Positions 10,650 to 54,016 are shown, counted from the first letter of the stretch. The stretch: DNA of 64,000 bases from an uncultured Gammaproteobacteria bacterium (GCA_938034705.1 CALHMG010000186.1:5110-69109), one strand, 5' to 3'. The notes: generated by a model from the letters alone, not told the origin. Numbers and translations: made by a program.

Positions 10650-10750
10650 TCGCCCGAGCAGAACAACCCCCGAATTGAAAACCCGGAACAGAAACAACAG
10701 GGGCTCGACGACAACAGGTCGGGTTACACCACAGACATGAGCATGAGTCG

Positions 10751-11209: not shown

Positions 11210-11213
11210 AACA

Positions 11214-11675: not shown

Positions 11676-11873
11676 ATACGCCGCGCGTCCGGACCCAGGG
11701 TTGTCCACAAACGGACAGCCTTATCGGTGTGACGTCGGTTCCCGCACCGGCCTGGAGCGCGGGCACACGGGAAGAAGTCCCGATACTGTCTGTCTGAGCA
11801 GGTCCCGGTTCACGGCATCGGGAAATTGGCGCAAATCGGCGGCGAATCTGCAACCGGCTGCCATACTGATCCA

Positions 11874-27515: not shown

Positions 27516-30500
27516 CTATCCCGTCGGCCGCCGGGTCCGTGACGATGACCTGTTCGGGGCTTCGCTACCGCCTGACTCATCGTCGAGGGGACGATGTTCC
27601 GGCGCAAGATTCTGCAGTCTTGAGAAGCTCAGCATCACCCGCAGCTCAAGCGCTCGGGCTCCCTGCTCTTTTGCGGTCGAGAGGGCTTCGCGAAACAGTC
27701 GCGTCGCCGTCTCGGTGTCCCGGGCCGAGAGCGCAACTTCACCCTGAACTCGCAGGAGTTCGGCGCGCCAGTGCGCTTCACCGTGAAGCTCGGTGCGCTT
27801 GAGCGCGATTGTCGCGGTCTGGCCTGCACCCTTCACGTCGCCCGCACGCGCCTGGGCGCTGGCAACCATTGACAGAACCCACGGTTGTCCGATGCCGCCC
27901 TGACACTCGCGCATCGCCTTGAGCCCCATGCTCATTGTCTCCAGGCCTTCCTTGAGCTTGTTCTTCATGACCAGCGTCTGCCCTTTGAGGACGATCACGA
28001 CGGCAGACAGATATGAAAATTCGTTCTGAGTCGAAAGACGCGCAAACTGATCGACAATTTTGCTTACGGCGTTGGCGTTGCCCATGCAGATATTGGTTGC
28101 GCAAACCCAGAACAGCGTCATCGCAGCCATAAACGGCTGGGGTGTTTCGCGCGCCGCCTTGAGCGCGCTTTCGCAGGTCATCATGGCCAGCGCCGGATTG
28201 CCCGTCATCCACTGGGTCCATCCCAGATGTCCAAGTACCGCTGCGCGAAGGTCGATTTGTTCGGACAGCATCATGCCCGAATCCGAACCGTCTTCTTCAT
28301 GATCCAGAGCGCTCTCAAAGTGTTCTCGCGCGGTGGAGAAGTTACCGCTCCAGAATTCAACAGCGCCGTCCAGAAAGTCAGCTACCGCCTTTACGTGATT
28401 GCAGCTGTTGTCAGTGGCGAGCGCTCTTGCCCGTCCGGCGAGTTCGCGCGCCTGTTTGAGTTCACCACGCGCGTAGTAGCACGTGAAAAGGCCGCGAATC
28501 GCATCAAGATTCAGGGCATCGCTGTCTACTCGTTCACCCAGTTCAATGGCGCGTTCAAACGCGGCCTGGGCCGCTGTCGATGCAAAACCCTGCAGCGCGC
28601 GGTGTCCGGCGCCAAGCAGAATATGCAAGCGCATTTCGATTTTGTCGGTCTTACTGTTACGCGGTGACAGGGCGATGGCCGCCAGAGCGTTTTCGGCGTG
28701 ATCGATCATCTCCTTGTTTGATGCACGTCCAAACGCATCCTTCGCCGCCCGGGACCAGAACTTTGCTGATTCCCAGTGTCGACCCGCACGCGTCAGATGC
28801 CACGCAATCTCCGCCCAGCCGCCGGCGCCAATTTGGGGTTCGGCTACAAGGACGTCAGCGAGACTTCCGTGCAGTTCAGATCGTCTCTCCAGCAGCAGTC
28901 CGTCGTACGCGGCTTCCTGAATCAAGGCATGTCGGAAGGCATACATCGACTCACGTCGTCTTACTGGCTTTATCACGCCCGTCTCTATCAGCGAGTCGAT
29001 CGCAAGATCTGTGGTTGTCTGATCGCACTGCGCCAGACGCATCAACATGTCGGTTGTGAATTCGCGGCCGATGACGGCAGCTACCGACGCGATGTCGCGT
29101 TCAAAACCGGCTTTGCCGAGTTTGGCGCTGAGCAATTCACGCAGCGATTCGGGAATGCGGGTTTCGAGACCGGCATTCCTGTCTTCTACGCAAAGCGAAC
29201 GTGCGAGTTCCTGCGCAAACAGCGGATTGCCACCAGATCGATCGACAATGGCCTCGCGCGCGAATAAATCGGGTTTGTGAGTGCCGGCGATAACGTCGAC
29301 CAGCTGACCCGTTGCGCCCGCCGTGAGGCTCGCAAGTTCAACATGGGCAACGTGGGGGTGCGATACCCAGGATGCCGGAACTTCTCCGCGTGTTGTCACG
29401 ATGAGCAGAACACGGCGATCCTTGATCCGCGCGATCATCGTTTGCAGAAATTCAGCGGACGTCGGATCGATCCACTGTGCGTCTTCGACTATGGCCAGCA
29501 CCGTTTCGGTATTGGTCAGCTCTTCGAAAAGACCGCTTAACGCGGCGACCGTTTCTTCCTTGCGCAAAATCGGGATCGATCGCGACGCATCGGTGTCATC
29601 GGTATCGAGCAGGAAATTGAAAATAGGTATGGCTTTACTGACGTTTTCGCCTGAATCACGGACCAGTCTGCGCCAGGTGTCGCGAACTTCCAGGTCGTAG
29701 ACGTTTTCTCTTGCAAAACGAGCTGCGTGTTCCAGATGACTCAGAAACGGATACAGCGGTGATGCGGTGTGGTACGGCGAACACTGATAGGTAATCTGCG
29801 TCGGCTTTTCGGCTTCGGTTACAAGCGCCATTTCGGTCGCAAGTCTCGACTTGCCGATACCGGCCTCGCCAGAAATCACAACTACCTGTCCGAGGCCGCG
29901 ACGCGCATCCTCCCAAGCACGTCGAAGGCTCAGCATCTGGCCGGATCGGCCGATCAACGCGCCATCGTCGCTGTGTCGCCGCGACGCGGTCGCGGTGCTG
30001 GTGACGTGGGAAGTGATCGCCTTCCAGACACCCACCGGCTTTTCCATACCGGTCAGTGTGTGCGCTCCAAGATCTTCAAAATCAGCAGCGCGCCCGATGA
30101 GCCGGCGCGTCTGATCGGCAACGACCACCTCGCCAGCGGCGGCAAGGTGATGCAGACGCGACGCGACGTTTGGCGTTTGACCCACAATGGCGTGCTGTTC
30201 GGCCGAGCCCTCTCCAATCAGATCTCCCGCAACAACAAGTCCGGTAGCGATGCCAATGCGCACGGCGAGGGGGTCGGCCCCCTGATAGCCGGGATCGATT
30301 TCGGAAACCGCCTGAACGAGTTCCAGAGCGGTGTGCACCGCGCGCTCCGCGTCGTTCTCGTGGGCATTGGGGTAGCCGAAGTACGTCATGATGCCGTCGC
30401 CAACAAATCGCGCGATGTAGCCATCGTAGTGTTTGATGGTTTCGGTGCACGTGCTTTGGTATCGCCTTAAAATTTCGCGCCACTGCTCCGGGTCGAGGCG

Positions 30501-30857
30501 CTCGGAGAGTCTTGATGAACCGACCAGGTCGCAAAACATCACCGTCAGCTGGCGACGCTCGGCCGCCGTTGAATGTCCTTTCGGGACTTCAATTTTTTCG
30601 ATTTGCGAGTACGGCTCAATTGGATTGGCGAGCACCGAACGCACGGTTGCGTTCTTGGGTGACAGCGCAGGCGCCAGCGCCGCGAGTTCAAGACTGAAAC
30701 TTCGTCCGGCAAGGGACACACCACATCCACCACAGAACTGTTCTTCTTCTGTGTTCTGAAATCCGCAGCTGCGGCAGTTGGACATAAGTGCTGCGCCACA
30801 ATCAGCGCAGAAGCTTCTTTCAGGTCGGTTGTTGTGACTGCAATAAGCGCACTGCAT
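27516..30857 (-). CDS. Multidomain signalling protein: double zinc ribbon + class III adenylate/guanylate cyclase + AAA (STAND-like) ATPase + TPR repeats
   Basis: The N-terminus has CAYCSH..CADCG and CRSCGF..CGGCG. The cyclase core has TVMFCDLVGSS, ARFVGDGIMTYFG and GQTPNVASRL. The P-loop is ISGEAGIGKSRL, and the C-terminal roughly 450 aa is helical repeat. Confidence 0.9.
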   Translation of the reverse strand: MQCAYCSHNNRPERSFCADCGAALMSNCRSCGFQNTEEEQFCGGCGVSLAGRSFSLELAALAPALSPKNATVRSVLANPIEPYSQIEKIEVPKGHSTAAERRQLTVMFCDLVGSSRLSERLDPEQWREILRRYQSTCTETIKHYDGYIARFVGDGIMTYFGYPNAHENDAERAVHTALELVQAVSEIDPGYQGADPLAVRIGIATGLVVAGDLIGEGSAEQHAIVGQTPNVASRLHHLAAAGEVVVADQTRRLIGRAADFEDLGAHTLTGMEKPVGVWKAITSHVTSTATASRRHSDDGALIGRSGQMLSLRRAWEDARRGLGQVVVISGEAGIGKSRLATEMALVTEAEKPTQITYQCSPYHTASPLYPFLSHLEHAARFARENVYDLEVRDTWRRLVRDSGENVSKAIPIFNFLLDTDDTDASRSIPILRKEETVAALSGLFEELTNTETVLAIVEDAQWIDPTSAEFLQTMIARIKDRRVLLIVTTRGEVPASWVSHPHVAHVELASLTAGATGQLVDVIAGTHKPDLFAREAIVDRSGGNPLFAQELARSLCVEDRNAGLETRIPESLRELLSAKLGKAGFERDIASVAAVIGREFTTDMLMRLAQCDQTTTDLAIDSLIETGVIKPVRRRESMYAFRHALIQEAAYDGLLLERRSELHGSLADVLVAEPQIGAGGWAEIAWHLTRAGRHWESAKFWSRAAKDAFGRASNKEMIDHAENALAAIALSPRNSKTDKIEMRLHILLGAGHRALQGFASTAAQAAFERAIELGERVDSDALNLDAIRGLFTCYYARGELKQARELAGRARALATDNSCNHVKAVADFLDGAVEFWSGNFSTAREHFESALDHEEDGSDSGMMLSEQIDLRAAVLGHLGWTQWMTGNPALAMMTCESALKAARETPQPFMAAMTLFWVCATNICMGNANAVSKIVDQFARLSTQNEFSYLSAVVIVLKGQTLVMKNKLKEGLETMSMGLKAMRECQGGIGQPWVLSMVASAQARAGDVKGAGQTATIALKRTELHGEAHWRAELLRVQGEVALSARDTETATRLFREALSTAKEQGARALELRVMLSFSRLQNLAPEHRPLDDESGGSEAPNRSSSRTRRPTG

Positions 30858-31472
30858 ACATCTTCCGCAAGTCAGGAGCCCGACATGTCACGCAGTGATC
30901 TAAAGATCCTGCGCAGCCGGCGCCCCGTCTTGCTATCCCCTTTGACTGATGGCGAACAGCCAATCCTGATTGCTCAGGACAGGTTGTTCGTGGATCGGTT
31001 AACCGATCTCTGTTTTTGTGTGCCCGATGCAGATCGTTGCTGCATCGCGTGGGGTACAGTCTAAGGTCATGCGTTTGGGCGATAAAGACCGACGATGATC
31101 ACGTCGGATTGCCTGCGTGCGCGTTCGTTGCATTGACTGTGTGAACGACCCGCCTAAAGTATGTCGAACGTCCTGCTATCCGCTCCAATTGAAACTGTCG
31201 GCGAACAAATCGATCGTTTGAGTATTTTTTTTCGGGAAAGCGACGTGATTTTGAAGACATAAAAAATATTTCAGGGATGTCACGGTTACGTAGTTACAGG
31301 GTCTTTGACTCGCAATTACCGGGGTTTTGTCCTGACAGCAGCGCCGCGAGACGGGACAGGAAAATGTGTAACATACGCGCGGGCCGGATCAGACAGATGC
31401 GATCCGCCTCAACAGGATGAAACCGGGTGAGTGGGTAATACGCCGGGCGCGGGGCTACTTTCAGGGACACAG

Positions 31473-32345
31473 ATGAGCAAAGCGGGTTCAATCACATGTG
31501 CGGGCAAGAAGGATGGCGCGGGCGCCCAGGCCCTTGCGGTAATTACGACGCAGGCGTTTGCGGCCGCAACCGGCGTTCGCTACATCCACACGCCGTTTTC
31601 GTCTATCGCTCACAACGATGATAACGATCCTCACTGGGCGGCAAGATGGGAAAGATTTTTTAATCTGGGCGAGGGCGCTCCGAGTGACCCCGGTGGTCTT
31701 GAACGCGTTGAACTCAAACGTGTGATGGATATTGATATCGCCGCAACGGATGCCGCTGACAGGCTCTATGTCGTGCAACACGCGCTTGGCTATACCGATG
31801 CCAATCCTGACGCGATCGACGCGATCCGCGCTGATTTGCGTGACCGCTACAACGGACCCGATGCTGACGACAGCTCTGACGTTGATCCGGACGTTGTGAA
31901 TGTCGCCGTACACATTCGCCGCGGCGATGTGTCGAACTCAGGCGTAAACGCTATTCGCTACACCGACAACGAGCGGATCAAGCGAGCACTCGACAACGTT
32001 CTGGACGCAATCAAAAAGATGGGCGAGACCGCATCGGTCACGATCTACTCGGAAGGGTCCATGGATGACTTTGCCGATTTTGTTCAGCCGGGTGTGCAGT
32101 TCAATCTGGGCGGCGACGCGTTTTTGACGTATCACCGGCTCGTCAGCGCGGACGTTCTGCTGATGGCCAAAAGCGCTTACAGCTACTCCGCCGCGATCCT
32201 CAGTCATGGCGCGTGCGTTTATGAGCCCTACCATCGCACTCCCCTTGCCGACTGGATTGCTCTGGACGACACCGGCGACGTACATCGGGTCGCCTTTACC
32301 CTGCGGCTGCGACGTCGCCTGGCGCAACGAAGAGAATCAGACTGA
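31473..32345 (+). CDS. Putative glycosyltransferase of the fucosyltransferase-like (GT11/GT23/GT65-type) superfamily
   Basis: The N-terminus KKDGAGAQALAVITTQAFAAATGVRYIHTPF resembles the G-x-G-N-Q type motif, and the HxRRGD motif is present as VAVHIRRGDVS. The ATG at 31473 is preferred over the upstream GTG at 31431. Confidence 0.5.
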   Translation: MSKAGSITCAGKKDGAGAQALAVITTQAFAAATGVRYIHTPFSSIAHNDDNDPHWAARWERFFNLGEGAPSDPGGLERVELKRVMDIDIAATDAADRLYVVQHALGYTDANPDAIDAIRADLRDRYNGPDADDSSDVDPDVVNVAVHIRRGDVSNSGVNAIRYTDNERIKRALDNVLDAIKKMGETASVTIYSEGSMDDFADFVQPGVQFNLGGDAFLTYHRLVSADVLLMAKSAYSYSAAILSHGACVYEPYHRTPLADWIALDDTGDVHRVAFTLRLRRRLAQRRESD

Positions 32346-32696
32346 CGCCAGACACAATGAAGGTTTCGCGGTGCAGATCGCAGTTGTGTCGCCGCCGACC
32401 GGAATCGGGTTGCGCAGCGACTTACGCGATAGCGCGTGCGTTTCGCCACATACGACCACGCCAGCGTGTTGTGTAATACGCCTGCTCTTTACAGGTGTTA
32501 CTCCGTATAGGGCAACGTCAGGGATGTTCGTATACTTTTTTGATTCGCACGGAGGCCGCAAACACGTTCTGAAACTGCAGTACCGGGGGGAAATCTAATG
32601 GAACATCGCGTATCTGAAACCAGGTCCAGGCACACAGATTCCGGGGGCCGGATGTCCGGGTCTGACATCTCAGGGTCGGGTCGCGCCAATCACAGA

Positions 32697-33395
32697 ATGT
32701 CTCAGGCTCTGGCCGAGTCCTTGAAGCAGGTCGATCTGTTCGCGACTCTTGATGACCAGGCGCTGCGCGCCGTCGCCGGAGTCTGCAGAATTCGTCACTA
32801 CGCCAGCGGCCAGCCTGTTCTTTCCCAGGGTGATGCGGGTACCGACGTTTACTTTGTTGTTGATGGCGAGCTCCGCGCGACGCTGTATTCGCCCACCGGC
32901 CGCGAGGTTGCATTTGAAGAGCTGCCAATCGGTTCCGTGTTTGGAGAACTGGCGGCGATCGACTCCGGGCCGCGCGCGACCACGGTACTTGCGCTGAGTG
33001 ACGCGACACTTGCGGTAATGAGCGCCGAAGGGTTCAAAGTCATGTTAAAGGCGCATCCCGGTATTGGGCTGGTGGTGCTTGAACGATTGACGCAGCTGGT
33101 GCGTCGACTCTGCGATCGTGTCTTTGAATACACCACGCTTGATGTGTCCCAGCGCGTCCAGTCAGAGTTGCTTCGGCTCGCCCAGGGCAAATCGGTTGAC
33201 GGAAACAGCATAGTCATTGACGACTTTCCAACTCATGCGGAGTTCGCCAACAGGATCAGCACTCACAGAGAAGCGGTTACCCGGGCGATAAACGCGCTTG
33301 AGCGTCGTTCACTGATTTCTCGCAGCAGCGGCCAGCTCGTTATCTGTGACTATCGCAAACTTGCAGAGATTGTCGGCGAACTTCGCTCGAACTGA
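32697..33395 (+). CDS. Crp/Fnr-family transcriptional regulator with an intact cNMP phosphate-binding cassette
   Basis: cNMP-binding domain (LFATLDDQAL...FGELAAIDSGPRATTVLA) and C-terminal HTH (HAEFANRISTHREAVTRAINALE). There is no FNR-type N-terminal Cys cluster. The start could also be at 32598 or 32652. Confidence 0.85.
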   Translation: MSQALAESLKQVDLFATLDDQALRAVAGVCRIRHYASGQPVLSQGDAGTDVYFVVDGELRATLYSPTGREVAFEELPIGSVFGELAAIDSGPRATTVLALSDATLAVMSAEGFKVMLKAHPGIGLVVLERLTQLVRRLCDRVFEYTTLDVSQRVQSELLRLAQGKSVDGNSIVIDDFPTHAEFANRISTHREAVTRAINALERRSLISRSSGQLVICDYRKLAEIVGELRSN

Positions 33396-33504: not shown

Positions 33505-34743
33505 ATGACGATAGCAGGGCTCCAGTATCGACCGTCCGGATGGGGCCTTGTTCGAATCGCTGCGTTCGTCGTCGCAATACTCTGGGTGATCGGACTGTTG
33601 TTCCCGGCTCCCGACAAAACCCTGGCTCATGTGCCGATTGCCCGGGATATCGCCGCCGACCCTCGGCTTCGGCCAGCGCTTGCCCCACGCGATGACGGTC
33701 GTGGCGTGCTTGACTACACGACCCTGCGCCAGATCAGTCCACAAACCAAAACGATCGCCTGGGTCGGCGGGTCTTCGACGATGCAGTATCGCGACGTCCA
33801 CAAGGCTCGGAAAAAAAAGAATCAGGACCTCGACAAGGCGGCCAGAAAAGCGAAGCGCCAGAAACGCAAATTGCGGGAGCTGTTGCCATCCAAAGTTCTT
33901 GACGAGTTGACGCAACGGTGTGATCTCGACTCCGTGGTTGACGTCTACATCAACCCCGGCATGCGCACGCTCGATCAGTACATTTTCCTGCAGCATGTGC
34001 TGGCGACGAAGCCCACCGCGTTGATTCTCACTCTCAACCCGTACTGGGCGTTTAACGATTTCGCGCTGAATCGAAGGCAGGATGTGTTCCCTGGTGCGCT
34101 GTATCGCGGTGTTGACGACGAGCTGACGCGTTTTTGGTCGAGTGTGCTTGGACAGCCGAGTGATTTCGCTTACGCGCGAGCCGCCCGGGTTCTCCCGGTT
34201 GTGCGTGACCGATGGGACTACCATCGTCAGCTTTTCGAGTTCTGGCAAGGTGTTCAGCCGAACATCCAGGGTACACAGAAGCAGCGTAACCAGCGCAAGC
34301 GCCAGCTTCGCAAAGAGGCGCAACGCGAATCGGTCGATACACTGAGAATGAGTCGATGTGCGCCCGATTGCATCAACGTCGATCCCGACGGCGCAAGCTA
34401 TCGTTTGCTTCGTCAGATGTTCGAGATGATCAGGAACAGCGGCGTTAACGCTGTCGTATACGAGGCTCCGCTGAATCTGAAAGGGCTGATGGACGATGTG
34501 CCGGACGCATCGGATGAAAATCTTGCCGCGCAGTTTGCGTCTTTGCTGAAACAACAGAGTGCGGCAATCAGAACGATTGCAGACGAGTTCAGTTCGCCGA
34601 GTGTTAGCGTTATCACTGCCGACGACTGGGAACCTGACGGGTTAAAGTTCAACGATGTCATTCATCTTTCGTCGATGGGCAATCTTCCGCAGGAACTGAC
34701 CGACGCCCTGGCACCCATGGTCGGGTGTGGAGCGACCCGGTGA
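33505..34743 (+). CDS. DltD-like / SGNH-type membrane-anchored acyltransferase-esterase (putative)
   Basis: A single N-terminal TM helix (LVRIAAFVVAILWVIGLLF), a block-I-like WVGGSST and a block-V-like DxxH (FNDVIHLSS) near the C-terminus. It lies immediately upstream of, and overlaps, the MBOAT gene. Confidence 0.55.
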   Translation: MTIAGLQYRPSGWGLVRIAAFVVAILWVIGLLFPAPDKTLAHVPIARDIAADPRLRPALAPRDDGRGVLDYTTLRQISPQTKTIAWVGGSSTMQYRDVHKARKKKNQDLDKAARKAKRQKRKLRELLPSKVLDELTQRCDLDSVVDVYINPGMRTLDQYIFLQHVLATKPTALILTLNPYWAFNDFALNRRQDVFPGALYRGVDDELTRFWSSVLGQPSDFAYARAARVLPVVRDRWDYHRQLFEFWQGVQPNIQGTQKQRNQRKRQLRKEAQRESVDTLRMSRCAPDCINVDPDGASYRLLRQMFEMIRNSGVNAVVYEAPLNLKGLMDDVPDASDENLAAQFASLLKQQSAAIRTIADEFSSPSVSVITADDWEPDGLKFNDVIHLSSMGNLPQELTDALAPMVGCGATR

Positions 34744-36002
34744 CCGACACATTCAGCGCATTTAGCTACTTTGTTAACTTCCTGGTGCTGCTGATTGTTG
34801 CGCTACCGGTTTACTATCTTCTGCCTTCGATTTCGCTGCGACGAATCTGGCTGATCGTGATTTCTGCGGCACTGATGTTTTATGTCGCGCCAAAACTTCT
34901 GCTGCTCTATCTGGTTTTCTGGCCTCTTGGCTACGCGCTTGTTGTCCTTTTGCGCAAGCAAAGCGAAAAGTCTGATGGTTCGCTTTATCTGGGGGCGGCG
35001 GTTGTGGCGGCTTTGCTGCCGCTTGTACTGTGGAAGTTGTTCAGTCACGAATTTGAAGCCCAGCTGAACCAGCTTTCTCGGGGTTTTCTGCTGCACGTCT
35101 TCGAGCCCTTCGCGCAAACCGATGCCGTGAAGTCAGCCGTGATTCCTGTTGGCCTGAGTTTTGCCACGTTCAGGCTGATTGATGTCATGGTGCAGACGCA
35201 TCTAGGACTTGTGCAGAAGATTTCGTTTTTGCGGTTCATGTACTTCGGTTTTTTCCCTTCCCTTCTTCCTGTTGGCCCCATTGCCGAATATCGTGAAGCC
35301 GGGGCTGAGAATGACCAGTGCGTTGCGGCCAGCGCAGAAAACTTTGGCGCCGGCGCAATGCGAATCCTGATTGGATGCGCGAAGATCTTCGTTCTGGCCT
35401 ATCCGCTGGCGTGGAGCACGAATATTTTTGAGTATCACGATTTCAACACTGCGGTGATGATGTGGGTAAGCCTGGCGGCATTCGCCATCTACTTCTGGCT
35501 TAACTTCTCTGGTTACTCCGACATTGCTATCGGCACGGCGCGTTTGCTGGGTGTTCAGCTCAAGGAAAATTTCAACAACCCTTACTGGCGACGTAACCCG
35601 CAGGAGTTCTGGGCCAACTGGCACATGAGCCTGACACGATTTGCGCAGCGCAATATTTTTGTTCCTCTCGGTGGCTTCAGAAAAAAGACACAGTTCATCG
35701 CGATATTCTGTACGATCATGACGATTGCGCTCTGGCATGACATTTCAGTGTCGCTGATTCTCTTCGGTCTTTACCACGCTGCCGGATTGATATTCGTCAG
35801 GATCTGGCAGGACCGCCGGTCCGGTTCTGCTGCATCTGTTTCTCCGGCGTCGGATGACGAAAGCCTGGCTCTCGGCGCTCGGGCGAAGGATATCGGTTCG
35901 CGTGTGGCAACTTTCGTCTTTGTTCTGCTGAGCTTTCCGATGCTGGTGCTTCCCTACCACGAATTGCCGGCCTTCTATCTGCGCCTGCTTTCACCCTTCT
36001 GA
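34725..36002 (+). CDS. MBOAT-family membrane-bound O-acyltransferase (DltB/AlgI-like)
   Basis: A multi-TM protein with FWANWHMSLTRFAQRNIFVPLGG and the conserved-His block IALWHD (His codon 35736-35738). GTG at 34725 or GTG at 34740 (GTGA overlap with the upstream stop) could be the start. Confidence 0.9.
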   Translation: MWSDPVTDTFSAFSYFVNFLVLLIVALPVYYLLPSISLRRIWLIVISAALMFYVAPKLLLLYLVFWPLGYALVVLLRKQSEKSDGSLYLGAAVVAALLPLVLWKLFSHEFEAQLNQLSRGFLLHVFEPFAQTDAVKSAVIPVGLSFATFRLIDVMVQTHLGLVQKISFLRFMYFGFFPSLLPVGPIAEYREAGAENDQCVAASAENFGAGAMRILIGCAKIFVLAYPLAWSTNIFEYHDFNTAVMMWVSLAAFAIYFWLNFSGYSDIAIGTARLLGVQLKENFNNPYWRRNPQEFWANWHMSLTRFAQRNIFVPLGGFRKKTQFIAIFCTIMTIALWHDISVSLILFGLYHAAGLIFVRIWQDRRSGSAASVSPASDDESLALGARAKDIGSRVATFVFVLLSFPMLVLPYHELPAFYLRLLSPF

Positions 36003-36017
36003 CCCACGAGTTCAACC

Positions 36018-36164
36018 ATGAAATCTGACAGCCCGGCACGCCCACGCTCTTTCATTTTGACGCTCGCGATAGAGTTCGGTATCGCCTTGTTTGCGGCGCT
36101 CGTCATCTTTCTTACGATTGCGCTGTCTCAGAAGAACATCGAGTTCGTATATCAGGGGTTTTGA
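36018..36164 (+). CDS. Small single-pass membrane protein with a C-terminal F-x-Y-x-x-F motif (DltX-like); not in the supplied ORF track
   Basis: Hand translation gives MKSDSPARPRSFILTLAIEFGIALFAALVIFLTIALSQKNIEFVYQGF*. The ATG lies 15 nt after the MBOAT stop. The N-terminus is basic, one TM helix follows, and the short tail ends in FVYQGF. Confidence 0.55.
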   Translation: MKSDSPARPRSFILTLAIEFGIALFAALVIFLTIALSQKNIEFVYQGF

Positions 36165-36233
36165 GTTCCATCGGTTGCGGCCAGTCGTTACAATTCCGGC
36201 CTCAAGCTCCCATGAGTTGCACGGAATTCAACT

Positions 36234-36470
36234 ATGTCTGACCCACTCTTTGACCTGTTTGCGCAAGGGCTGAAGGTATCGGCTGATCAATTGACGGACG
36301 AGTCTTCCCCGGACAACACGCCTCAATGGGACAGCCTGGCTGCAATGAATCTGGTCTCCCTTATAGAAGACACGTTCGATGTTGAACTGAGCACCCGCGA
36401 CATCATGCAGATGAGATCGATTGGTCTTGCGCGCCAGGCGCTGAAAGACAAGGGTGTCGACACTGTCTGA
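36234..36470 (+). CDS. Acyl/peptidyl carrier protein (DltC-like)
   Basis: 78 aa with phosphopantetheine attachment motif WDSLAAMNLVSLIE (Ser34, codon 36333-36335). Confidence 0.88.
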   Translation: MSDPLFDLFAQGLKVSADQLTDESSPDNTPQWDSLAAMNLVSLIEDTFDVELSTRDIMQMRSIGLARQALKDKGVDTV

Positions 36471-36476
36471 CGCTGA

Positions 36477-36516
36477 AAAGACCTCTGACCGGACTGTTCC
36501 GGTCAGCAGCGTCTTT
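36477..36516 (+). terminator. Terminator/attenuator-like hairpin between the carrier protein and the FkbH-like gene
   Basis: Perfect 9-bp stem CTGACCGGA / TCCGGTCAG with loop CTGT, extended by an outer AAAGAC / GTCTTT pairing and followed by TTTTGGG. Confidence 0.4.
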
Positions 36517-36576
36517 TGGGTTGCACGCGAAATCACACTGCCCTGACCGAACAGCACTGCACTGTACTGTATTGAA

Positions 36577-38325
36577 ATGAATCCCCTACTCGAGGCTCGC
36601 AAGCGATGGATGGCCTGGTCGCCACAGCATGATGCACCCCGAGTGAGCGTCGGTGTGTTGGGCAGCTACACGGTAGATCCGATGGTGCCTTATCTTGGCG
36701 ACGCGCTGGTTCAGCAGGGGCAGTCGCCGGATATCAGGGTTGCGCCATTCAACCAGCTGATTCAGGGAGCTCACAATCCTGGCGCTGCGTTCGATGGTGA
36801 CATACCTGACACTCTGGTCTTTATCTGGCGAATCGAAGATCTTTTTCCGTCACCAGTCGCACGATTTGTGGAAGGCGACGCCGCGGCGCTGTCAGATGTG
36901 TTTGATGGTCTTGATCAGTTTGCCGCAGCGTTGCGCCAGCTGCGTGCCGGTTTCGAGGGTACGGTCGTTGTGGGGATACCGCCCTGTCCGATGCTTGCGG
37001 TGATGGACATCGAACATCTAGCTGCGCACAGTTCGCTGACTGAACTGCACCGCAAGGTTGTGAGCCGTTGGCTTGATCTGCTCGATGAAATCAAGGGTCT
37101 GCTCAGGGTTGATCTTGATTCCATCGAACGTGCGATTGGCTCAACAAGCGCGGCGGATCCTCGCAAGTGGTATCTGTATCGTCAGCCGTACAAGGACGTC
37201 ATGCACAACGGTGTCGCACAGGCGTTGGCGCGAATTATTCGACTCGAGCGCGGCACGGACCTTGTGAAGTGCCTGGTGGTTGACTGTGATAACACGCTTT
37301 GGGGTGGTGTTGTCGGCGAGGACGGTGTGGAGGGTCTCGCTCTCGGGGAGGATTTTCCCGGCAGCGCATACGTTGATTTTCAAAGACAGCTTGTTGCTTT
37401 GCAAAAAACGGGACTCTTCATCACTCTCGTGAGCAAGAATAACGAAGCTGACGTGATGGAAGTCTTCGACCGCCATGACGCAATGATGCTGCGGCGCGAG
37501 CATCTCTCAACGTGGCGCATCAACTGGCAGCCCAAGTCGCAAAACATTACCGAAATCGCCAGCGAGCTGAATATTGGCCTTGATGCAATCGCGTTTATTG
37601 ATGACAGCTCGTTTGAGATCGAGGAAGTGAAAGCACGCACACCTGAAGTTTTGTGCCATCAGGTTCCTGAAGATGTTGCACTCCTGCCCAAGAGCATTCG
37701 CGACCTGCGAGTGTTTGAAAGAGTCGGGATCACCGAGGATGATCGTCGTCGAACCCGACTCGTGCAGGCCGAGAAGCAACGCATCAGCGCAAAAGGTACG
37801 GTAAGTGAAGAAGAATTTCTGAAAACTCAGGGCCTTTGTCTTACCGTTGGTGAGGCAACTGACGGTCAGATAGATCGAGTTACCCAGCTGATTAACAAGA
37901 CGAATCAGTTTAATCTGACAACCAGACGACGAACCCGCGAAGAGGTAGAAGCACTCGCCAACGCTGCCGATAGCAGAGTTTACTTTGCCACCGCTGCCGA
38001 TCGGTTTGGTGAATACGGTTTGATCGGTGTTGCGGTGGTGTCCTGTGCCGAGCGCAGCTGGCACCTGGATACCCTGCTGCTAAGCTGCAGGGCGCTGGGC
38101 AGAAAGATCGAAACTGCGTTTGTGGCGCGAATTGGCGATGACGCATCCGCGACCGGTATAGCAACGCTGACAGCAGAGTTTATTGAGACCGCAAAAAATA
38201 CCCCGGCAAAATCGTTTTTGCCCGACCACGGATTTACGGTTTCTGGCGCAAACGCTTTTACGGCAGAGATCAAAAATATGCCTCCGTGTCCTGACTTTAT
38301 TCAAGTGAAGAGCTTTGGTTCATGA
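36577..38325 (+). CDS. HAD-superfamily subfamily IIIC / FkbH-like protein (putative carrier-protein loader)
   Basis: HAD motif I VVDCDNTLWGG (37282-37296), LVSKNN, FIDDSSFEIEEV, and a C-terminal GNAT-like region with LLLSCRALGRKIE (Cys codon 38086-38088). Confidence 0.88.
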   Translation: MNPLLEARKRWMAWSPQHDAPRVSVGVLGSYTVDPMVPYLGDALVQQGQSPDIRVAPFNQLIQGAHNPGAAFDGDIPDTLVFIWRIEDLFPSPVARFVEGDAAALSDVFDGLDQFAAALRQLRAGFEGTVVVGIPPCPMLAVMDIEHLAAHSSLTELHRKVVSRWLDLLDEIKGLLRVDLDSIERAIGSTSAADPRKWYLYRQPYKDVMHNGVAQALARIIRLERGTDLVKCLVVDCDNTLWGGVVGEDGVEGLALGEDFPGSAYVDFQRQLVALQKTGLFITLVSKNNEADVMEVFDRHDAMMLRREHLSTWRINWQPKSQNITEIASELNIGLDAIAFIDDSSFEIEEVKARTPEVLCHQVPEDVALLPKSIRDLRVFERVGITEDDRRRTRLVQAEKQRISAKGTVSEEEFLKTQGLCLTVGEATDGQIDRVTQLINKTNQFNLTTRRRTREEVEALANAADSRVYFATAADRFGEYGLIGVAVVSCAERSWHLDTLLLSCRALGRKIETAFVARIGDDASATGIATLTAEFIETAKNTPAKSFLPDHGFTVSGANAFTAEIKNMPPCPDFIQVKSFGS

Positions 38326-39212
38326 CCGCCGCCTACAACGAAATTTCAAGTCGCCTTGAGGCCGTCCCCTACATACGACGGTCGGTAGATGAGGTGAAAC
38401 TCGCCGGCGGTGACCAGTGGCTGGCGACGCTGGACGACCATATGGAGAATTTCGCGGGCTATCTCGCTGAAACCGGCGGCAGCATCGATGACGCGGTTGA
38501 AGGTTTTGTTGAGATGACGCTGGAGACCATCCGTCTGCAGCAAAATTTCTTCAAGACCGGGAAGTTCAATACACTGGACGACTACGATGATCAGGCAGAT
38601 GTCTATCAGGACAGAGACCTGATGGTGAGACGCTACCTGCCGGGGCTTTATCTGGCCCAGCTGCTCTGGAAAAACCATTACCAGAAACTGCGATTTTTCA
38701 CCGATCGAGTTGTGCCTGAGGCGCAATCCGCCGACCGAGCCTTCGACGTTGGCGCTGGACCCGGCACCTTTGGGCTGACGCTGGCCAGTCGTTATCCAGA
38801 ACTTGCGGTCACGTTCAACGACATCAGCCCTTTCAGCGAGGAAATGATTACGGCACTCGCCAAACGAAAAACGGGTATTGATTTCCTGCCTGGCGATTTC
38901 CTCAAGCTCGACGTTACCCGACCCTATGATTTTGTTGTGTTCAGCGAAGTTGTGGAACACCTGAGTGATCCCGGAGCCGGGATGGACAAACTGCTCGACG
39001 TGGTTGCAGCTGATGGCAAGGTTTTCTTCAGCACCGCGACCAACGCGGCGTTTTACGACCACACCATTATTTACGAGTCAGTTGCGGAGATTCGCTCGAT
39101 GATCAAAGACCATGGCTTTGACATTGAGTTCGACGAAGAGGTGATGGCGCTTGAGTCCGGTGATGGTGTTGATGTGATTGACTACAACGCCGTGATCAGG
39201 CGAGCTGGCTGA
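38322..39212 (+). CDS. Class I SAM-dependent methyltransferase (paralog 1)
   Basis: Motif I FDVGAGPGTFG and the post-I acidic FNDIS. Its N-terminal helical domain is shared with the paralog at 39648. There is a 4-nt overlap with the FkbH-like stop. Confidence 0.85.
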   Translation: MTAAYNEISSRLEAVPYIRRSVDEVKLAGGDQWLATLDDHMENFAGYLAETGGSIDDAVEGFVEMTLETIRLQQNFFKTGKFNTLDDYDDQADVYQDRDLMVRRYLPGLYLAQLLWKNHYQKLRFFTDRVVPEAQSADRAFDVGAGPGTFGLTLASRYPELAVTFNDISPFSEEMITALAKRKTGIDFLPGDFLKLDVTRPYDFVVFSEVVEHLSDPGAGMDKLLDVVAADGKVFFSTATNAAFYDHTIIYESVAEIRSMIKDHGFDIEFDEEVMALESGDGVDVIDYNAVIRRAG

Positions 39213-39215
39213 ACC

Positions 39216-39644
39216 ATGGTCGAACCCAACAACGCTGCTGGGCTTGAACTTGCGCACATAGGTTACGTCGTCAACAACATGGACGGTGCCCTGAAGCGGT
39301 TCGTTCGTGAAGGCGCGACCATCGTGATGTCATCCTGTCATGACCCGATTCAAAAAGTTCACGTGGCGGTGGTTGAACTGCCGGGCAACGTTTTGATCGA
39401 GCTTGTCGCGCCAGACGACAGCGGCAGTTCGCCGGTTGAGGCTCGGCTTGGTCGCGGCGGTGGGCTGGATCATCTTTGTTACTTTACCGATGATATTGAG
39501 GCCGCGATAAAAACCGAAACCGAACAGGGTGCCGTCGTCGTGTGCGAGCCGGTATTTGCGGTCGCCTTCAATGCCACGGTGGCGTTTGTCCATCGACGCA
39601 CCGGCCTTGTGGTTGAATATATGACTCGACCGGAGGTTGCTTAG
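39216..39644 (+). CDS. VOC-family (glyoxalase / methylmalonyl-CoA epimerase-like) protein
   Basis: LAHIGYVVNNMDGALKRF...IELVAP...LDHLCYFTDDIEAA...VEYM is the typical paired beta-alpha-beta-beta-beta VOC pattern with His/Glu metal ligands. Confidence 0.8.
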   Translation: MVEPNNAAGLELAHIGYVVNNMDGALKRFVREGATIVMSSCHDPIQKVHVAVVELPGNVLIELVAPDDSGSSPVEARLGRGGGLDHLCYFTDDIEAAIKTETEQGAVVVCEPVFAVAFNATVAFVHRRTGLVVEYMTRPEVA

Positions 39645-39647
39645 TCG

Positions 39648-40574
39648 ATGGACCGGACCGAACTCGAGAAATTTGCCAGGCCCTTCGCCAGCCAGTGGAT
39701 TGCGGAAAACGTGCCGATGATTTCCGGCGGGCTGACGGTGTTCCAGGAAGCGCTGGCGGACGACGACCGCGAGATTATCGATGATGTGTTCTGGCGTTTT
39801 ATCCAGAACCACGAGGACCCCAGGGCCGCTCTCGCCGGCGGGCTCGAGTCTTTTTCGACAATCAGCGTGGATTTTCTCAGGCTTCAGGGGCGCTTTATGC
39901 GTAGCGGCAAGTATCGCGCGGCCGCCAACCCGGAGACGTTGCAGGAGCTGTACGCCGACGGCGAGCGAATGCGCGGTTACTATCTCGACGGTCTTTTTCT
40001 GACCTATGCGCTGTGGCCGAACCACGTGCAGATGCTCAAATTCTTCAGAGATCGATTTCTTGCGCGTTTGCCCGAGAACGTTTCGTTGCTCGAGGTCGGC
40101 GTGGGTCATGGATTGATGGCGTCATTGATGCTGGAGCAGTTACCCGGCAGTAGCTATCACGGGATCGATATTTCCAGTCACTCAATCGACTACGCGATGG
40201 AAAACTTTTCACCTGCGCTCAAACAGGCGGGTCGGGTAAAGATGAGTTGCGCTGATATCACCGACCCGGCGCTCAAGCCCGGACATCATGATGCAGTTGT
40301 ATGTTGCGAAGTACTTGAGCATGTTCTTGAGCCCGATGTTCTGCTCGAGGCGCTGAGTCGGTCCGTTGAGGCTGGCAGTTTCGGGTTTCTCACGACGGTC
40401 GCAAATATGGAAGCCGAAGACCATGTCTATCTCTTTCATGATGCGGATGACATTCGCACCCATATCACCAGGGGCGGATTTGAGATTGTCGAAGACCAGG
40501 CCAACGGGTTGCCGGGAATGGAAGATGCGACCCCGCGTCCGCTGAACTACAGCGCAATCGTTCAACGCACCTGA
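39648..40574 (+). CDS. Class I SAM-dependent methyltransferase (paralog 2)
   Basis: Motif I LLEVGVGHGLM and CCEVLEHV. Its N-terminal region aligns with the paralog at 38322 (LRLQGRFMRSGKY vs IRLQQNFFKTGKF; LWPNHVQMLKFFRDRF vs LWKNHYQKLRFFTDRV). Confidence 0.85.
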   Translation: MDRTELEKFARPFASQWIAENVPMISGGLTVFQEALADDDREIIDDVFWRFIQNHEDPRAALAGGLESFSTISVDFLRLQGRFMRSGKYRAAANPETLQELYADGERMRGYYLDGLFLTYALWPNHVQMLKFFRDRFLARLPENVSLLEVGVGHGLMASLMLEQLPGSSYHGIDISSHSIDYAMENFSPALKQAGRVKMSCADITDPALKPGHHDAVVCCEVLEHVLEPDVLLEALSRSVEAGSFGFLTTVANMEAEDHVYLFHDADDIRTHITRGGFEIVEDQANGLPGMEDATPRPLNYSAIVQRT

Positions 40575-40687
40575 TGCATCACAACACCGCAATTGATTTC
40601 TGAAGGGCCGCAAACGGTCTCCGGGACATTCGCTGATCCTGTTTCGGGATTGCGCTATGGTGTTCGCGCGGGTCTGGTGACCCAGCA

Positions 40688-41386
40688 ATGTTTGATAGCG
40701 TTTATCTGTCTCGCAAAAAACCGATGAACGGATATCTCGCACCGTGCCGGAGTTTTAGTTTGTACGACCTTGCCGAAATCCGCAGCGCACTCAATGTGGC
40801 GCCGGGCCTTCAGTTTGAATCCGCAGAGAAGCGAGCTTCAGTCGCGTTGATTCTCAGAAGCGTTGATGACGAAACACAGGTTTTTTTGATTCGCCGCGCC
40901 GACAAGGATGGTGACCCATGGTCCGGACATATGGCATTTCCCGGTGGCCGGGTTGAAGCAACAGATCGCGATCTGGAGCACACCGCGCGGCGGGAAACTC
41001 TGGAGGAGACTGAGCTCGTCATTACGAGTGAGGATTGTATTGGTCGCATAGATGACGTCCAGGGCCGCTCCAGAGGCAGGAGTATCGGGCTGGTTATTTC
41101 ATGTTTTGTGTTTCAGATCGATGCTGACCGTGGTGAGCGACCGGTTGGCAACTATGAAGTCGCCTCAACCCACTGGGTACCGCTGTCCTGGTTCAGTGAT
41201 TCAACTCGATTCCTTCATTACTACCCACCGAAGCCGCACGGCGACGTCTATCCTGGGATGCGGATCGGTGACCATGAACGCGAAATACTGTGGGGCCTGA
41301 CGTATCGGTTCATGTGCGATTTCTTTTCCCGGCTTGGGACTTCGCTCCCTGAAACTACAGGCGAAATCACACCAAAATCCGGCTGA
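40688..41386 (+). CDS. Nudix hydrolase, CoA-pyrophosphatase-like
   Basis: Nudix box GGRVEATDRDLEHTARRETLEETEL, preceded by FLIRRADKDGDPWSGHMAFPGG, which resembles the CoA pyrophosphatase signature. The start is uncertain (40688 or 40724). Confidence 0.78.
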   Translation: MFDSVYLSRKKPMNGYLAPCRSFSLYDLAEIRSALNVAPGLQFESAEKRASVALILRSVDDETQVFLIRRADKDGDPWSGHMAFPGGRVEATDRDLEHTARRETLEETELVITSEDCIGRIDDVQGRSRGRSIGLVISCFVFQIDADRGERPVGNYEVASTHWVPLSWFSDSTRFLHYYPPKPHGDVYPGMRIGDHEREILWGLTYRFMCDFFSRLGTSLPETTGEITPKSG

Positions 41387-41408
41387 TTCAGTGCGTCCGT
41401 ACCACTGC

Positions 41409-41470
41409 GGCTGGACGACCGTGATATCGTGATCGGCCTGATTCAAAAGAGCCACGATGCTGGTCCAGCC
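41409..41470 (+). promoter_or_regulatory. Structured leader hairpin immediately upstream of moaA
   Basis: Outer stem GGCTGGAC (41409-41416) / GTCCAGCC (41463-41470) and inner stem ATCGTG (41426-41431) / CACGAT (41453-41458). It ends 11 nt before the moaA ATG. Confidence 0.3.
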
Positions 41471-41481
41471 TCGCAGAACCC

Positions 41482-42552
41482 ATGACCAACGTTCCTTTTA
41501 ATCCTTCACCGAAGTCGTTGTCTTCAGGCGTAGAAAAATCCTCGGGCGTCGTCGATCAGCGGGGCCGCGGCATACGGGACTTGCGAATCTCGGTAACGGA
41601 TCGTTGTAACTTCCGATGTGTTTACTGCATGCCCAAGGAACTGTTTGGTTCTGATCATGCGTTTTTGCCGCGTGCTGAACTGCTGAACTTTGAGGAAATC
41701 GAACGGATCGCTCGCGCGTTCGCAAGCCTTGGGGTAACCAAGCTACGGCTGACCGGCGGTGAGCCTCTGGTACGCAAGGAACTTGAAACGCTGATCAGTC
41801 AGCTTGCGGTGATACCCGGTATTGATGATGTGAGCCTCACCACTAACGGCTCGCTGTTGACGCTCGATAAGGGACGCGCGCTAAAAGATGCCGGACTGAA
41901 GCGACTCACCATCAGTCTCGACGCCGTGACCGAAGAAGTATTCTCGGCAATCAATGACGTCAAATTTCCTGTCGCCAAGGTGCTCGGTGCCGTCGACAAC
42001 GCGCTTGCTGCGGGTCTTGATCCAATCAAGGTCAACATGGTTGTGGCCAAGGGGATGAACGAGGAGGAGATCCTGCCCATGGTGCGTCAGTTCAAAGGCA
42101 CCGGCGTGATCCTGCGATTTATCGAGTTTATGGATGTTGGCAACACCAACGGGTGGAAGCTTGATCGCGTTGTTTCTGCGCGTGAGATTGTCGAGACCAT
42201 AGCCAGCGAATTTCCCGTTGAGCCCCTGAACGCCAACTACCCTGGCGAGGTTGCGAGCCGATGGAAGTTTTCAGACGGCAGCGGTGAGATTGGTGTTATT
42301 TCATCTGTGACCAAACCGTTTTGTTCCAGCTGCACCCGCGCGCGACTGTCCGCCGAGGGGAGCGTCTACACGTGTCTGTTCGCCAGCGAGGGCACCGACC
42401 TCCGTGCGCTCGTTCGAAGTGGCGCGAGTGATGACGAGCTGCGCGACGCAGTCCAGAACGTCTGGTCACACAGAGACGATCGATATTCGGAGCTGCGCTC
42501 CGACGCTACTGTCGATCTTCCAAAAGTTGAAATGTCCTACATCGGGGGGTGA
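41482..42552 (+). CDS. moaA: GTP 3',8-cyclase MoaA (radical SAM)
   Basis: RISVTDRCNFRCVYCMP, a C-terminal second cluster CSSCTRARLSAEG, and a terminal GG. Confidence 0.95.
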   Translation: MTNVPFNPSPKSLSSGVEKSSGVVDQRGRGIRDLRISVTDRCNFRCVYCMPKELFGSDHAFLPRAELLNFEEIERIARAFASLGVTKLRLTGGEPLVRKELETLISQLAVIPGIDDVSLTTNGSLLTLDKGRALKDAGLKRLTISLDAVTEEVFSAINDVKFPVAKVLGAVDNALAAGLDPIKVNMVVAKGMNEEEILPMVRQFKGTGVILRFIEFMDVGNTNGWKLDRVVSAREIVETIASEFPVEPLNANYPGEVASRWKFSDGSGEIGVISSVTKPFCSSCTRARLSAEGSVYTCLFASEGTDLRALVRSGASDDELRDAVQNVWSHRDDRYSELRSDATVDLPKVEMSYIGG

Positions 42553-53982: not shown

Positions 53983-54016
53983 TGTCTCGGGCTTTCCCTT
54001 GCCTGATCGTTACGGG

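Follow-up and report, generated by a model that had tools for sequence, protein, structure and literature searches.

What might a bacterium load, and on to what would it transfer it, using a set of genes that resembles the D-alanylation (Dlt) pathway of Firmicutes in all its parts except the ligase? This question is raised by positions 33505-40574 of a 64,000-nucleotide stretch of DNA from an uncultured Gammaproteobacteria bacterium (GCA_938034705.1, CALHMG010000186.1:5110-69109), the whole of which is called the window below, with positions counted from its first letter. In the Dlt system, DltB moves D-alanine from the carrier protein DltC to a tyrosine of DltX, from which it passes to a serine of DltD and then to lipoteichoic acid (LTA) (PMC12148441). 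Listing the open reading frames (ORFs) of the region gives eight, all on the + strand, which encode in order an SGNH protein, an MBOAT, a microprotein, an acyl carrier protein (ACP), an FkbH-type enzyme, a methyltransferase (MT1), a VOC enzyme and a second methyltransferase (MT2), with successive intergenic spacings of -19, 15, 69, 106, -4, 3 and 3 nt. A first-pass annotation made from the sequence alone had counted seven genes, which is wrong, as its own list names eight products; it had placed all eight ORFs at the coordinates and on the strand where they are found, and had correctly put the widest gaps, of 69 and 106 nt, on either side of the carrier-protein gene. The reading favoured here, at a probability of about 0.65, is that these genes form a self-contained, horizontally mobile envelope-acylation cassette, Dlt-like but with a different cargo. 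It is read as a relay because, the ligase excepted, every Dlt relay part is found, each with the residues that define it.

The MBOAT (34725-36002) is recognised by PF03062 with 69 bits in a Pfam profile search and has the His motifs of a DltB-like protein, in agreement with its first assignment. Its top match in NCBIfam is DltB (TIGR04091, 138.4 bits against a cutoff of 375), and its only relatives in the PDB are the DltB structures 6bug and 8jem, to which both motifs align, namely the conserved His300 in WHMSL (35622-35624) and His338 in LWHD (35736-35738). The C-terminus of the protein (...LRLLSPF) carries no fused FxYxxF motif; it is the next product, the DltX-like microprotein (36018-36164), that ends in this way. 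This consists of 48 residues, with a basic N-terminus and one hydrophobic, single-transmembrane helix, and terminates as F43-V-Y45-Q-G-F48 directly before the stop codon (Tyr45 at 36150-36152); its length, single helix and ending are as had been described. In DltX, FXYXXF is the acyl-shuttle motif, the invariant tyrosine of which takes the acyl group from DltB to DltD (PMC12148441).

That so short a motif is meaningful can be judged from its distribution in the window and 89 related loci (numbered L001-L089). Among the 15,671 complete ORFs of 25-120 residues in these 90 sequences, just 11 end in F.Y..F followed by a stop, and all 11 adjoin a cassette MBOAT, the 15,660 others being without the motif; the association of this ending with the cassette MBOAT is far beyond chance. 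Both motif and stop are kept in L001, L002, L005/6, L011-L014, L016 and L017, with the variants FVYQGY in L007 and FVYQGL in L026, and every well-assembled relative has such an ending beside its MBOAT, the forms seen being IEFVYQGF, IPFVYQGF, IPFIYQGF, VPFIYQGF, TQFVYQGF and LQFFYGAF.

The longest ORF of the first gene (33505-34743) begins at 33346, but the start at 33505 is preferred because the homologues and the database gene call agree on it. By sequence the product gives only a sub-threshold match to GDSL_2 in profile searches, and word-indexed homology searches, whether with the single sequence or with a five-sequence profile, yielded only 4-5 relatives, so that an exhaustive HMMER search was needed; run over 1.84 billion cluster representatives, this returned 196 clusters at E ≤ 1e-3, of which 48 reach E ≤ 1e-30. 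In an alignment of 93 members that share about 20% identity, three residues (S90, Y319 and H387) never vary and four more (W86, N178, P179 and D384) hardly do, which by sequence is a Ser/His/Asp plus Asn signature; the putative catalytic residues are S90 (33772-33774), N178 (34036-34038), D384 (34654-34656) and H387 (34663-34665). No Pfam model covers the family (weak GDSL_2 matches occur in 6 of the 93 members and weak DUF1574 matches in 2), and on sequence grounds it is a separate family, small, discrete and not merging with true DltD. Using the 93-sequence alignment, AlphaFold (AF2) produced a model with a mean predicted local distance difference test score (pLDDT) of 88.3 and a predicted template-modelling score of 0.88 (a 6-sequence alignment had reached a pLDDT of only 55), with an N-terminal transmembrane helix at residues 12-32 that would serve as a membrane anchor. 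When this was compared with the PDB using Foldseek, the best full-length matches were DltD structures (3bma, 6pfx, 7dxm and 6o93; E 2e-5 to 1e-3, template-modelling score about 0.35-0.43), followed by generic SGNH esterases. Because Foldseek ranks the DltD structures first, the protein is taken to be an SGNH enzyme whose nearest solved relative is DltD, and so, from its fold and conserved residues, a predicted DltD-like acyltransferase; the earlier placing of this product within the SGNH fold is borne out.

Turning to the components that would supply the relay, the carrier protein (36234-36470; 78 residues) matches PP-binding with 29.2 bits, above the cutoff of 20.8, and contains the DSL site D33-S34-L35 that had been pointed out in it, with the phosphopantetheine attachment residue Ser34 lying in QWDSLAAMNLV (36333-36335). 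It is visibly the best-conserved protein of the cassette, the core DNTPQWDSLAAMNLV being nearly identical across distant loci, and its own hidden Markov model (HMM) separates cassette-type loci (at least 118 bits) from nearly all loci lacking an MBOAT (no more than 72 bits); it is considered an ACP dedicated to the cassette. All of its NCBIfam matches are to generic ACP models and sub-threshold, with no DltC-specific model among them.

The FkbH enzyme (36577-38325) starts 106 nt beyond the ACP gene in the window, and the two are adjacent in nearly all related loci. Over residues 230-556 it matches positions 3-322 of the 323 in TIGR01686, with 304.1 bits against a cutoff of 146.65, and it also matches HAD-IIIC with 72 bits; the ORF comprises 582 residues, the database gene call starting 11 residues downstream. 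Among 38 homologues the HAD motif D236-x-D238-x-T240 (D236-C-D238-N-T240 here, 37282-37296) and S503-C504-R505 (38083-38091) are invariant, and D342-D343 is conserved; C504 is presumably the acyl-accepting catalytic cysteine, as in enzymes of the OzmB type. The PDB entry 3slr matches the HAD part only. A simple phosphatase of the HAD type was considered for this product and ruled out by the end-to-end FkbH domain and its intact motifs, so that its first identification as FkbH-like is upheld. Enzymes of this kind, together with an ACP, convert 1,3-bisphosphoglycerate into glyceryl-ACP (PMC7489565), and the protein is accordingly a putative glyceryl-ACP synthase.

Profile searches agree with the succession of methyltransferase, VOC enzyme and methyltransferase read earlier at 38322-40574. 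MT1 (38322-39212), a class I methyltransferase dependent on S-adenosylmethionine (SAM), matches Methyltransf_23, 12, 25 and 11 and has an N-terminal extension of about 130 residues; its best NCBIfam match is the malonyl-ACP O-methyltransferase BioC (47 bits, sub-threshold), and orthologues are found in L001 (78% identity) and L002 (36%). MT2 (39648-40574), of the same class by its profile matches, is paralogous to MT1, with 26% identity across the whole protein and the N-terminal extension included, and the single methyltransferase of most other cassette loci is closer to MT2 than to MT1. The VOC metalloenzyme (39216-39644) matches Glyoxalase_4 with 75 bits; its nearest NCBIfam model is methylmalonyl-CoA epimerase (TIGR03081, 48 bits, sub-threshold) and its nearest PDB entries, 3hdp and 2qh0 (E about 5e-15), are of glyoxalase I, H14, E62, H86 and E134 being candidate metal ligands. 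The methyltransferase and the VOC enzyme are conserved members of the cassette and not local add-ons: they recur in 10 of 15 cassette-type loci, the VOC enzyme being kept in 10, and L092 has two methyltransferases plus a VOC enzyme as in the window.

The same genes are found together elsewhere. More than 7,400 FkbH homologues exist at E < 1e-10; in the nearest of these that were sampled (41-73% identity) an ACP and an MBOAT adjoin the FkbH gene in all eight, and in six there are in addition an unannotated gene of roughly 360-417 residues (the SGNH protein) and an ORF of 35-59 residues (the microprotein). The closest relative of the cassette is L001, on a marine JGI metagenome contig (FkbH 73% identical), where the SGNH gene, of about 400 residues, is cut by the end of a short contig, and L009 and L091 represent variant cassettes among the eight. 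A broader scan, taking one genome per GTDB species with the FkbH alignment as query and applying a local HMM for each component, returned 80 loci. The full set (ACP, FkbH, MBOAT, DltD-like protein and microprotein) is present in metagenome-assembled genomes (MAGs) of a Hydrogenedentes bacterium (L011), an unclassified organism (L012) and two Actinomycetota (L016, L017), as well as in Micavibrio (L013) and an alphaproteobacterium (L014); in L026 (Ilumatobacteraceae) and L029 (Actinomycetota) a part of it is found. Some ten named genomes (Alphaproteobacteria, Hydrogenedentes and Actinomycetota) can be counted as carriers of these five parts, in most cases with the methyltransferase and VOC enzyme as well. 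These cassette-bearing loci correspond to the FkbH sub-clade nearest to that of the window, with FkbH HMM scores above about 560 and ACP scores above about 118. The set is therefore syntenic across distant genomes, as a gene-neighbourhood search had been expected to show if the idea was right, and no cassette-positive locus sits in a polyketide synthase (PKS) or non-ribosomal peptide synthetase (NRPS) cluster. Writing X for the microprotein, the order in the window is SGNH-MBOAT-X-ACP-FkbH-MT-VOC-MT and that in most other loci ACP-FkbH-MBOAT-SGNH-X-MT-VOC; that gene content is kept though the order is shuffled between lineages argues for functional coupling. There is very little doubt that a self-contained, co-inherited cassette is real. 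Nor is it specific to Gram-negative bacteria, as the Actinomycetota are included.

Several variants of this arrangement deserve mention. All-against-all clustering of the ORFs flanking cassette loci revealed no other consistently recurrent family besides an ABC ATPase, which recurs in three loci, and a MaoC-dehydratase/SDR fusion that adjoins the ACP gene in L005 (268-1719), L012 (12968-14266, - strand), L026 (184-471) and L090 (6086-7504, - strand). In L090 the fusion replaces the MT/VOC pair, while L005 and L012 retain a methyltransferase; it suggests another kind of tailoring, in which glyceryl-ACP is possibly dehydrated and reduced to lactyl-ACP. Longer MBOATs, of 486-499 residues, lie beside FkbH and ACP genes in L010 (12058-13518), L044 (11947-13446) and L009 (13118-14579), which are Stellaceae and Acidobacteriota MAGs; these end in PPFLYYKF or HTFIYFQF before the stop codon, and so have a fused shuttle motif like that of PatA or AlgI. 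The genes of 334-365 residues downstream of them have no Pfam match, and those following them in L009 and L044, tried as members of the DltD-like family, show no relationship to it by hhalign. In L091 (Magnetococcales) the order ACP-FkbH-MT-VOC is followed by two separate MBOAT genes (relevant coordinates 1089-2720, 8723-9604 on the - strand and 10662-11900), with a B12-binding radical SAM enzyme and another methyltransferase upstream, making it a more elaborate variant. In L057 (9498-11533), from a Gammaproteobacteria MAG, the FkbH gene is 45% identical to that of the window, but a frameshift interrupts it and the 9 kb around it hold no MBOAT; either a cassette in decay or a fault of the assembly may account for this.

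If these components act as their relatives do, the following scheme may be suggested. FkbH would take a glycolytic C3 unit (1,3-bisphosphoglycerate by family precedent), dephosphorylate it and attach it to Ser34 of the ACP as a glyceryl thioester. The two methyltransferases would then O-methylate the ACP-bound glyceryl group to give mono- or 2,3-di-O-methylglyceryl-ACP, one hydroxyl presumably being methylated in loci having a single methyltransferase, and the VOC enzyme may act at C2, alpha to the thioester, the simplest guess being that it epimerises this centre. If the membrane steps follow the Dlt and PatAB mechanisms, which have been reconstituted, the MBOAT would dock the acyl-ACP on the cytoplasmic face and hand the acyl group on, by way of a funnel lined with His residues, to Tyr45 of the microprotein at the outer face; the acyl-tyrosine C-terminus would swing to Ser90 of the membrane-anchored SGNH protein, and this in turn would esterify a hydroxyl of an extracytoplasmic acceptor. 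There are precedents for much of this. PatA and PatB operate an equivalent relay with a fused motif and acetyl-CoA (PMC12148441), and suomilide biosynthesis has an FkbH-like domain that charges a carrier with glycerate, O-methylation following (PMC13122637). The flagellar pseudaminic acid of Campylobacter jejuni bears a 2,3-di-O-methylglyceroyl group, and the locus concerned has in cj1302 a gene with an FkbH domain and in cj1301 an annotated "epimerase", the modification being absent from strains that lack one or the other (PMC3068675, PMC7099621). The strength of the scheme differs from part to part: a Dlt-style relay fed by the ACP is highly probable, it is likely that the cargo is derived from glycerate, and the odds that it is O-methylated in the way proposed are roughly even. 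The earlier proposal that a glycerate-derived acyl group esterifies an envelope polymer holds up, then, as regards the relay parts, the loader and the synteny, while the identity of the acyl group, the acceptor and the transfer chemistry are what we infer.

Various points weigh against the scheme. The structural likeness of the SGNH protein to DltD is modest (template-modelling score only about 0.4), none of the 93 family members matches the DltD model of Pfam, and a search of PDB sequences with the family-alignment profile gave only noise, while the MBOAT falls short of the DltB equivalog cutoff by a wide margin (138 vs 375 bits). Tailoring associated with the FkbH family can lead to products other than glyceryl, an example being the lactyl unit of the bryostatin loading module. 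The role of the VOC enzyme as an epimerase is a guess, the methyl groups might be placed on carbon in place of oxygen, the parallel with C. jejuni is correlative and a likeness by description, and to call the acceptor a polymer is an assumption, as there are no linked genes for acceptor synthesis.

This last point leads to one of the two alternatives that survive best, both of which retain the relay. The cassette itself does not encode an acceptor, and in none of the related loci are acceptor-synthesis genes linked to it; some 20 loci are without linked polysaccharide, lipopolysaccharide (LPS) or teichoic-acid genes. The group might on this evidence be transferred to something other than a polymer, such as the head group of a membrane lipid, an intermediate linked to a lipid or a small glycoconjugate destined for secretion, at the outer face of the cytoplasmic membrane, and the fact that both diderms and Actinomycetota carry the cassette would favour a universal, membrane-proximal acceptor of this sort. 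It is also the case that MBOATs can acylate small glycosides, as BslP does in suomilide (PMC13122637). Against this, the characterised bacterial MBOAT/SGNH pairs all modify polymers (LTA, peptidoglycan, alginate or cellulose; PMC12148441), and since LTA, the first acceptor of Dlt, is itself lipid-anchored, the difference is in any case only one of degree. On balance a non-polymer acceptor seems rather unlikely. Given the autonomy of the cassette and its presence in diderms and Actinomycetota alike, the acceptor is probably either a constituent that many envelopes have in common or a polymer whose genes lie elsewhere in the genome.

The other surviving alternative concerns the cargo, which might derive from a different phospho-acyl precursor, or be remodelled by the VOC enzyme and methyltransferases to a methoxyacrylyl, pyruvyl or lactyl-type unit. 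The VOC enzyme does resemble glyoxalase I, which interconverts 2-oxoaldehyde hemithioacetals and 2-hydroxyacyl thioesters; the sister cassettes with the MaoC/SDR fusion (L005, L012, L026 and L090) suggest a lactyl group there; and the FkbH sub-clade is only 30-47% identical to the other FkbH-ACP systems found here, which are themselves uncharacterised. However, the FkbH model is matched from end to end with all the invariant residues present, and two methyltransferases fit the two hydroxyls of glycerate. There is precedent, moreover, both for O-methylation of carrier-bound glycerate (PMC13122637) and for di-O-methylglyceroyl on a bacterial surface glycan (PMC3068675, PMC7099621). A cargo that is not (methyl)glycerate is judged improbable.

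It is very much less probable that the ACP-bound unit serves cytoplasmic secondary metabolism, feeding a distant PKS, NRPS or tetronate line, with the MBOAT and SGNH genes as unrelated neighbours. Pairs of FkbH and ACP are of course best known from methoxymalonyl-ACP and tetronate pathways, and there are about 65 further, more distant FkbH-ACP loci (L015, L018-L025, L027, L028, L030-L043 and L045-L089; e.g. L021, 9348-11982) that have no MBOAT and often have VOC and/or methyltransferase genes of the same families, among them archaeal MAGs of Promethearchaeota (L027), Thorarchaeota (L042), Nanoarchaeota (L082) and Methanospirillaceae (L086). The donor-synthesis submodule FkbH-ACP-MT-VOC seems to be reused with other consumers. 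But in the cassette loci the MBOAT, SGNH protein and microprotein co-vary with the FkbH sub-clade across phyla and gene orders, and the cassette is without FkbK/FkbI dehydrogenases, a FabH-like gene, or ketosynthase, acyltransferase, condensation or adenylation domains. The flanks of the window hold housekeeping genes (SUF, Moa, gpsA and rpoZ-spoT-recG), as do those of its relatives (Mfd, RecG, ProS, DnaE and trehalose phosphatase), and the largest ORF in the flanks surveyed is no more than 1,215 residues, so that there is no assembly line to feed; the earlier statement that adenylation enzyme, PKS and NRPS genes are missing holds for all eight products, and the flanks are without megasynthases. 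As a supply route for methoxymalonyl-ACP or tetronates the cassette was likewise rejected, with no dehydrogenase domains in the eight products and no PKS in the surveyed flanks or relatives. Finally, ordinary D-alanylation with DltA encoded elsewhere, and with FkbH, the methyltransferases and the VOC enzyme as a separate adjacent pathway, can hardly be credited: dlt operons do occur in some Gram-negative bacteria such as Dickeya (PMC3544676), but an adenylating enzyme is found in no cassette locus, FkbH is always beside the ACP, the ACP has no match to the DltC model and the MBOAT is far under the DltB equivalog cutoff.

As to the host of the cassette discussed here, the window contains UbiE and UbiB above their equivalog cutoffs, with a weak, sub-cutoff UbiJ-like gene between them, and it has the layout rph-yicC...rpoZ-spoT-recG, both of which indicate a ubiquinone-producing proteobacterium and hence a Gram-negative context. 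That context, claimed at the outset, is therefore right for the window and wrong as a trait of the cassette, which Actinomycetota also carry. The proteins encoded in the window are all database singletons or members of very small clusters. The cassette region (34001-42000, about 54-55% GC) lies some 2-4 GC points under most of the window (about 56-59% around it), and transposase genes (DDE_Tnp_1, rve) flank the relatives L002 (726-1728), L005 (1799-2935, - strand) and L007 (5304-6523, - strand); both observations are consistent with horizontal mobility. A scan of the window for promoters and terminators gave a signal no better than chance, and neither Rfam families nor tRNAs were found in it, so the operon boundaries and the ends of any island are not definable by these signals.

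Directly upstream of the cassette and co-directional with it is a gene for a Crp/Fnr-type transcription factor (32598-33395, + strand; cNMP_binding 66.6 bits, HTH_Crp_2 46.4 bits), a possible regulator of the cassette. Further upstream, 27516-30857 (- strand) encodes a protein of 1,113 residues in which a double zinc ribbon occurs together with a class III nucleotidyl cyclase domain, AAA_16 and TPR repeats, and this cyclase and the Crp/Fnr-type factor could together form a cyclic-nucleotide switch over the operon. Neither gene recurs in related loci, and the regulator stands outside the conserved cassette. The ORF between them (31431-32345, + strand, 304 residues) has a very weak match to GT11 (fucosyltransferase-like, E 0.047) and none in NCBIfam; it is the sole glycosyltransferase-like candidate near the cassette. 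On the other side, a NUDIX hydrolase (40688-41386, + strand) lies 113 nt past MT2 in the same direction and is not conserved beside other cassettes; its LIRRADKDGDPWSGHMAFPGG stretch resembles the CoA-pyrophosphatase NUDIX signature. Rather further away, adjoining genes for a PP2C-type Ser/Thr phosphatase and a Hanks-type Ser/Thr kinase (53014-54985, - strand) occur in an otherwise housekeeping stretch.

It was suggested at the beginning that no characterised system has this composition, and the searchable literature supports this. In about 8.3 million searchable full texts (subscription literature aside) HAD-IIIC and MBOAT are never combined; FkbH appears with an MBOAT or O-acyltransferase solely in three papers on natural products of the aeruginosin/suomilide family, and no bacterial envelope system is described; the 25 papers ranked highest for a pairing of FkbH or HAD-IIIC with DltB, DltD or AlgI contain neither of the first two terms; and the combination of a fused motif with a carrier and FkbH is nowhere described in these texts. 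Should the proposed scheme be correct, methylated glycerate esters would represent a chemically new envelope modification, with effects on surface charge, hydrophobicity and susceptibility to phage or antimicrobials to be learnt, and the SGNH transferases would be a new family that current domain databases have missed. With the cassette one could study in a natural setting what decides the cargo specificity of DltB-type MBOATs, which are targets for antibiotic adjuvants; its different flavours (MT/VOC vs MaoC/SDR, split vs fused motif) would reveal how relays of this kind evolve and exchange cargo; and FkbH-ACP-MT-VOC modules, widespread in uncultured bacteria and archaea, would be tied to the decoration of glycoconjugates and not to polyketides.

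It remains to compare the cassette with the systems it most resembles. With the FkbGHIJK methoxymalonyl-ACP and tetronate modules it shares an FkbH-domain enzyme, a stand-alone ACP and a SAM methyltransferase acting on a carrier-bound unit, but it lacks the FkbK/FkbI dehydrogenases, the FabH-like tetronate synthase and the PKS, having a membrane relay as its consumer instead. The FkbH-O-methyltransferase module of suomilide and banyaside (of the aeruginosin type) is similar in that carrier-loaded glycerate is then 2-O-methylated, and different in that its domains are fused in an NRPS, which yields a soluble peptide and no ester on the envelope. The di-O-methylglyceric acid (DMGA) locus of C. 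jejuni 11168 (cj1295-cj1304) likewise concerns methylated glycerate on a surface glycoconjugate and includes the FkbH-domain gene cj1302 and the annotated epimerase cj1301; presumably there are ACP and methyltransferase genes in it as well. There, however, the group is N-linked to cytoplasmic CMP-pseudaminic acid, there is no MBOAT/SGNH/DltX relay, and the links between gene and function are correlative.

Among envelope acylation systems, PatA/PatB (peptidoglycan), AlgI/J/F/X (alginate) and WssH/I (cellulose) also combine an MBOAT, an SGNH protein and an acyl-tyrosine motif in Gram-negative envelopes, but they use acetyl-CoA directly without a carrier, and in them the MBOAT itself bears FxYxxF, on two additional helices at its C-terminus (PMC12148441). 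The carrier protein and the split microprotein set the cassette apart from this type. The loci that combine a fused motif with FkbH and ACP (L010 and L044) look like an intermediate architecture. Dlt, so far treated as the sole MBOAT/SGNH route using a carrier and a separate DltX microprotein (a 2025 paper describes the other MBOAT/SGNH pathways as having neither; PMC12148441), is much the closest, sharing a carrier-dependent MBOAT without fused motif, a separate FxYxxF microprotein of about 45 residues, a DltD-like SGNH protein with a transmembrane anchor, and organisation in an operon. The differences are nevertheless considerable. No AMP-binding domain of the DltA kind is present in any of the eight products or recurrent in relatives, FkbH/HAD-IIIC being in the loader position; and the MBOAT is under the threshold of the DltB family, while the ACP and SGNH protein, under those of DltC and DltD by sequence, fit these families only in part, for which reasons the cassette is not considered a member of Dlt. 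The predicted cargo is a hydroxy-acid derivative in place of an amino acid, and so would bring no positive charge; on the carrier it is predicted to be tailored by SAM methyltransferases and a VOC enzyme; and the hosts include diderm Proteobacteria, which are without teichoic acids. The bolder claim, the chances of which fall a little short of even, would be that this cassette founds a second class of carrier-dependent MBOAT/microprotein/SGNH relays, one that spans phyla and adds a neutral mono- or di-O-methylglyceroyl ester to some part of the envelope that is broadly conserved, for instance peptidoglycan, a lipoglycan or periplasmic glucan. On the reading favoured here, the architecture of Dlt has been reused with new loading chemistry, a glycolysis-fed HAD/FkbH enzyme standing where Dlt has an ATP-dependent amino-acid ligase, with tailoring on the carrier added to it, in a cassette carried by diderm and monoderm phyla alike.

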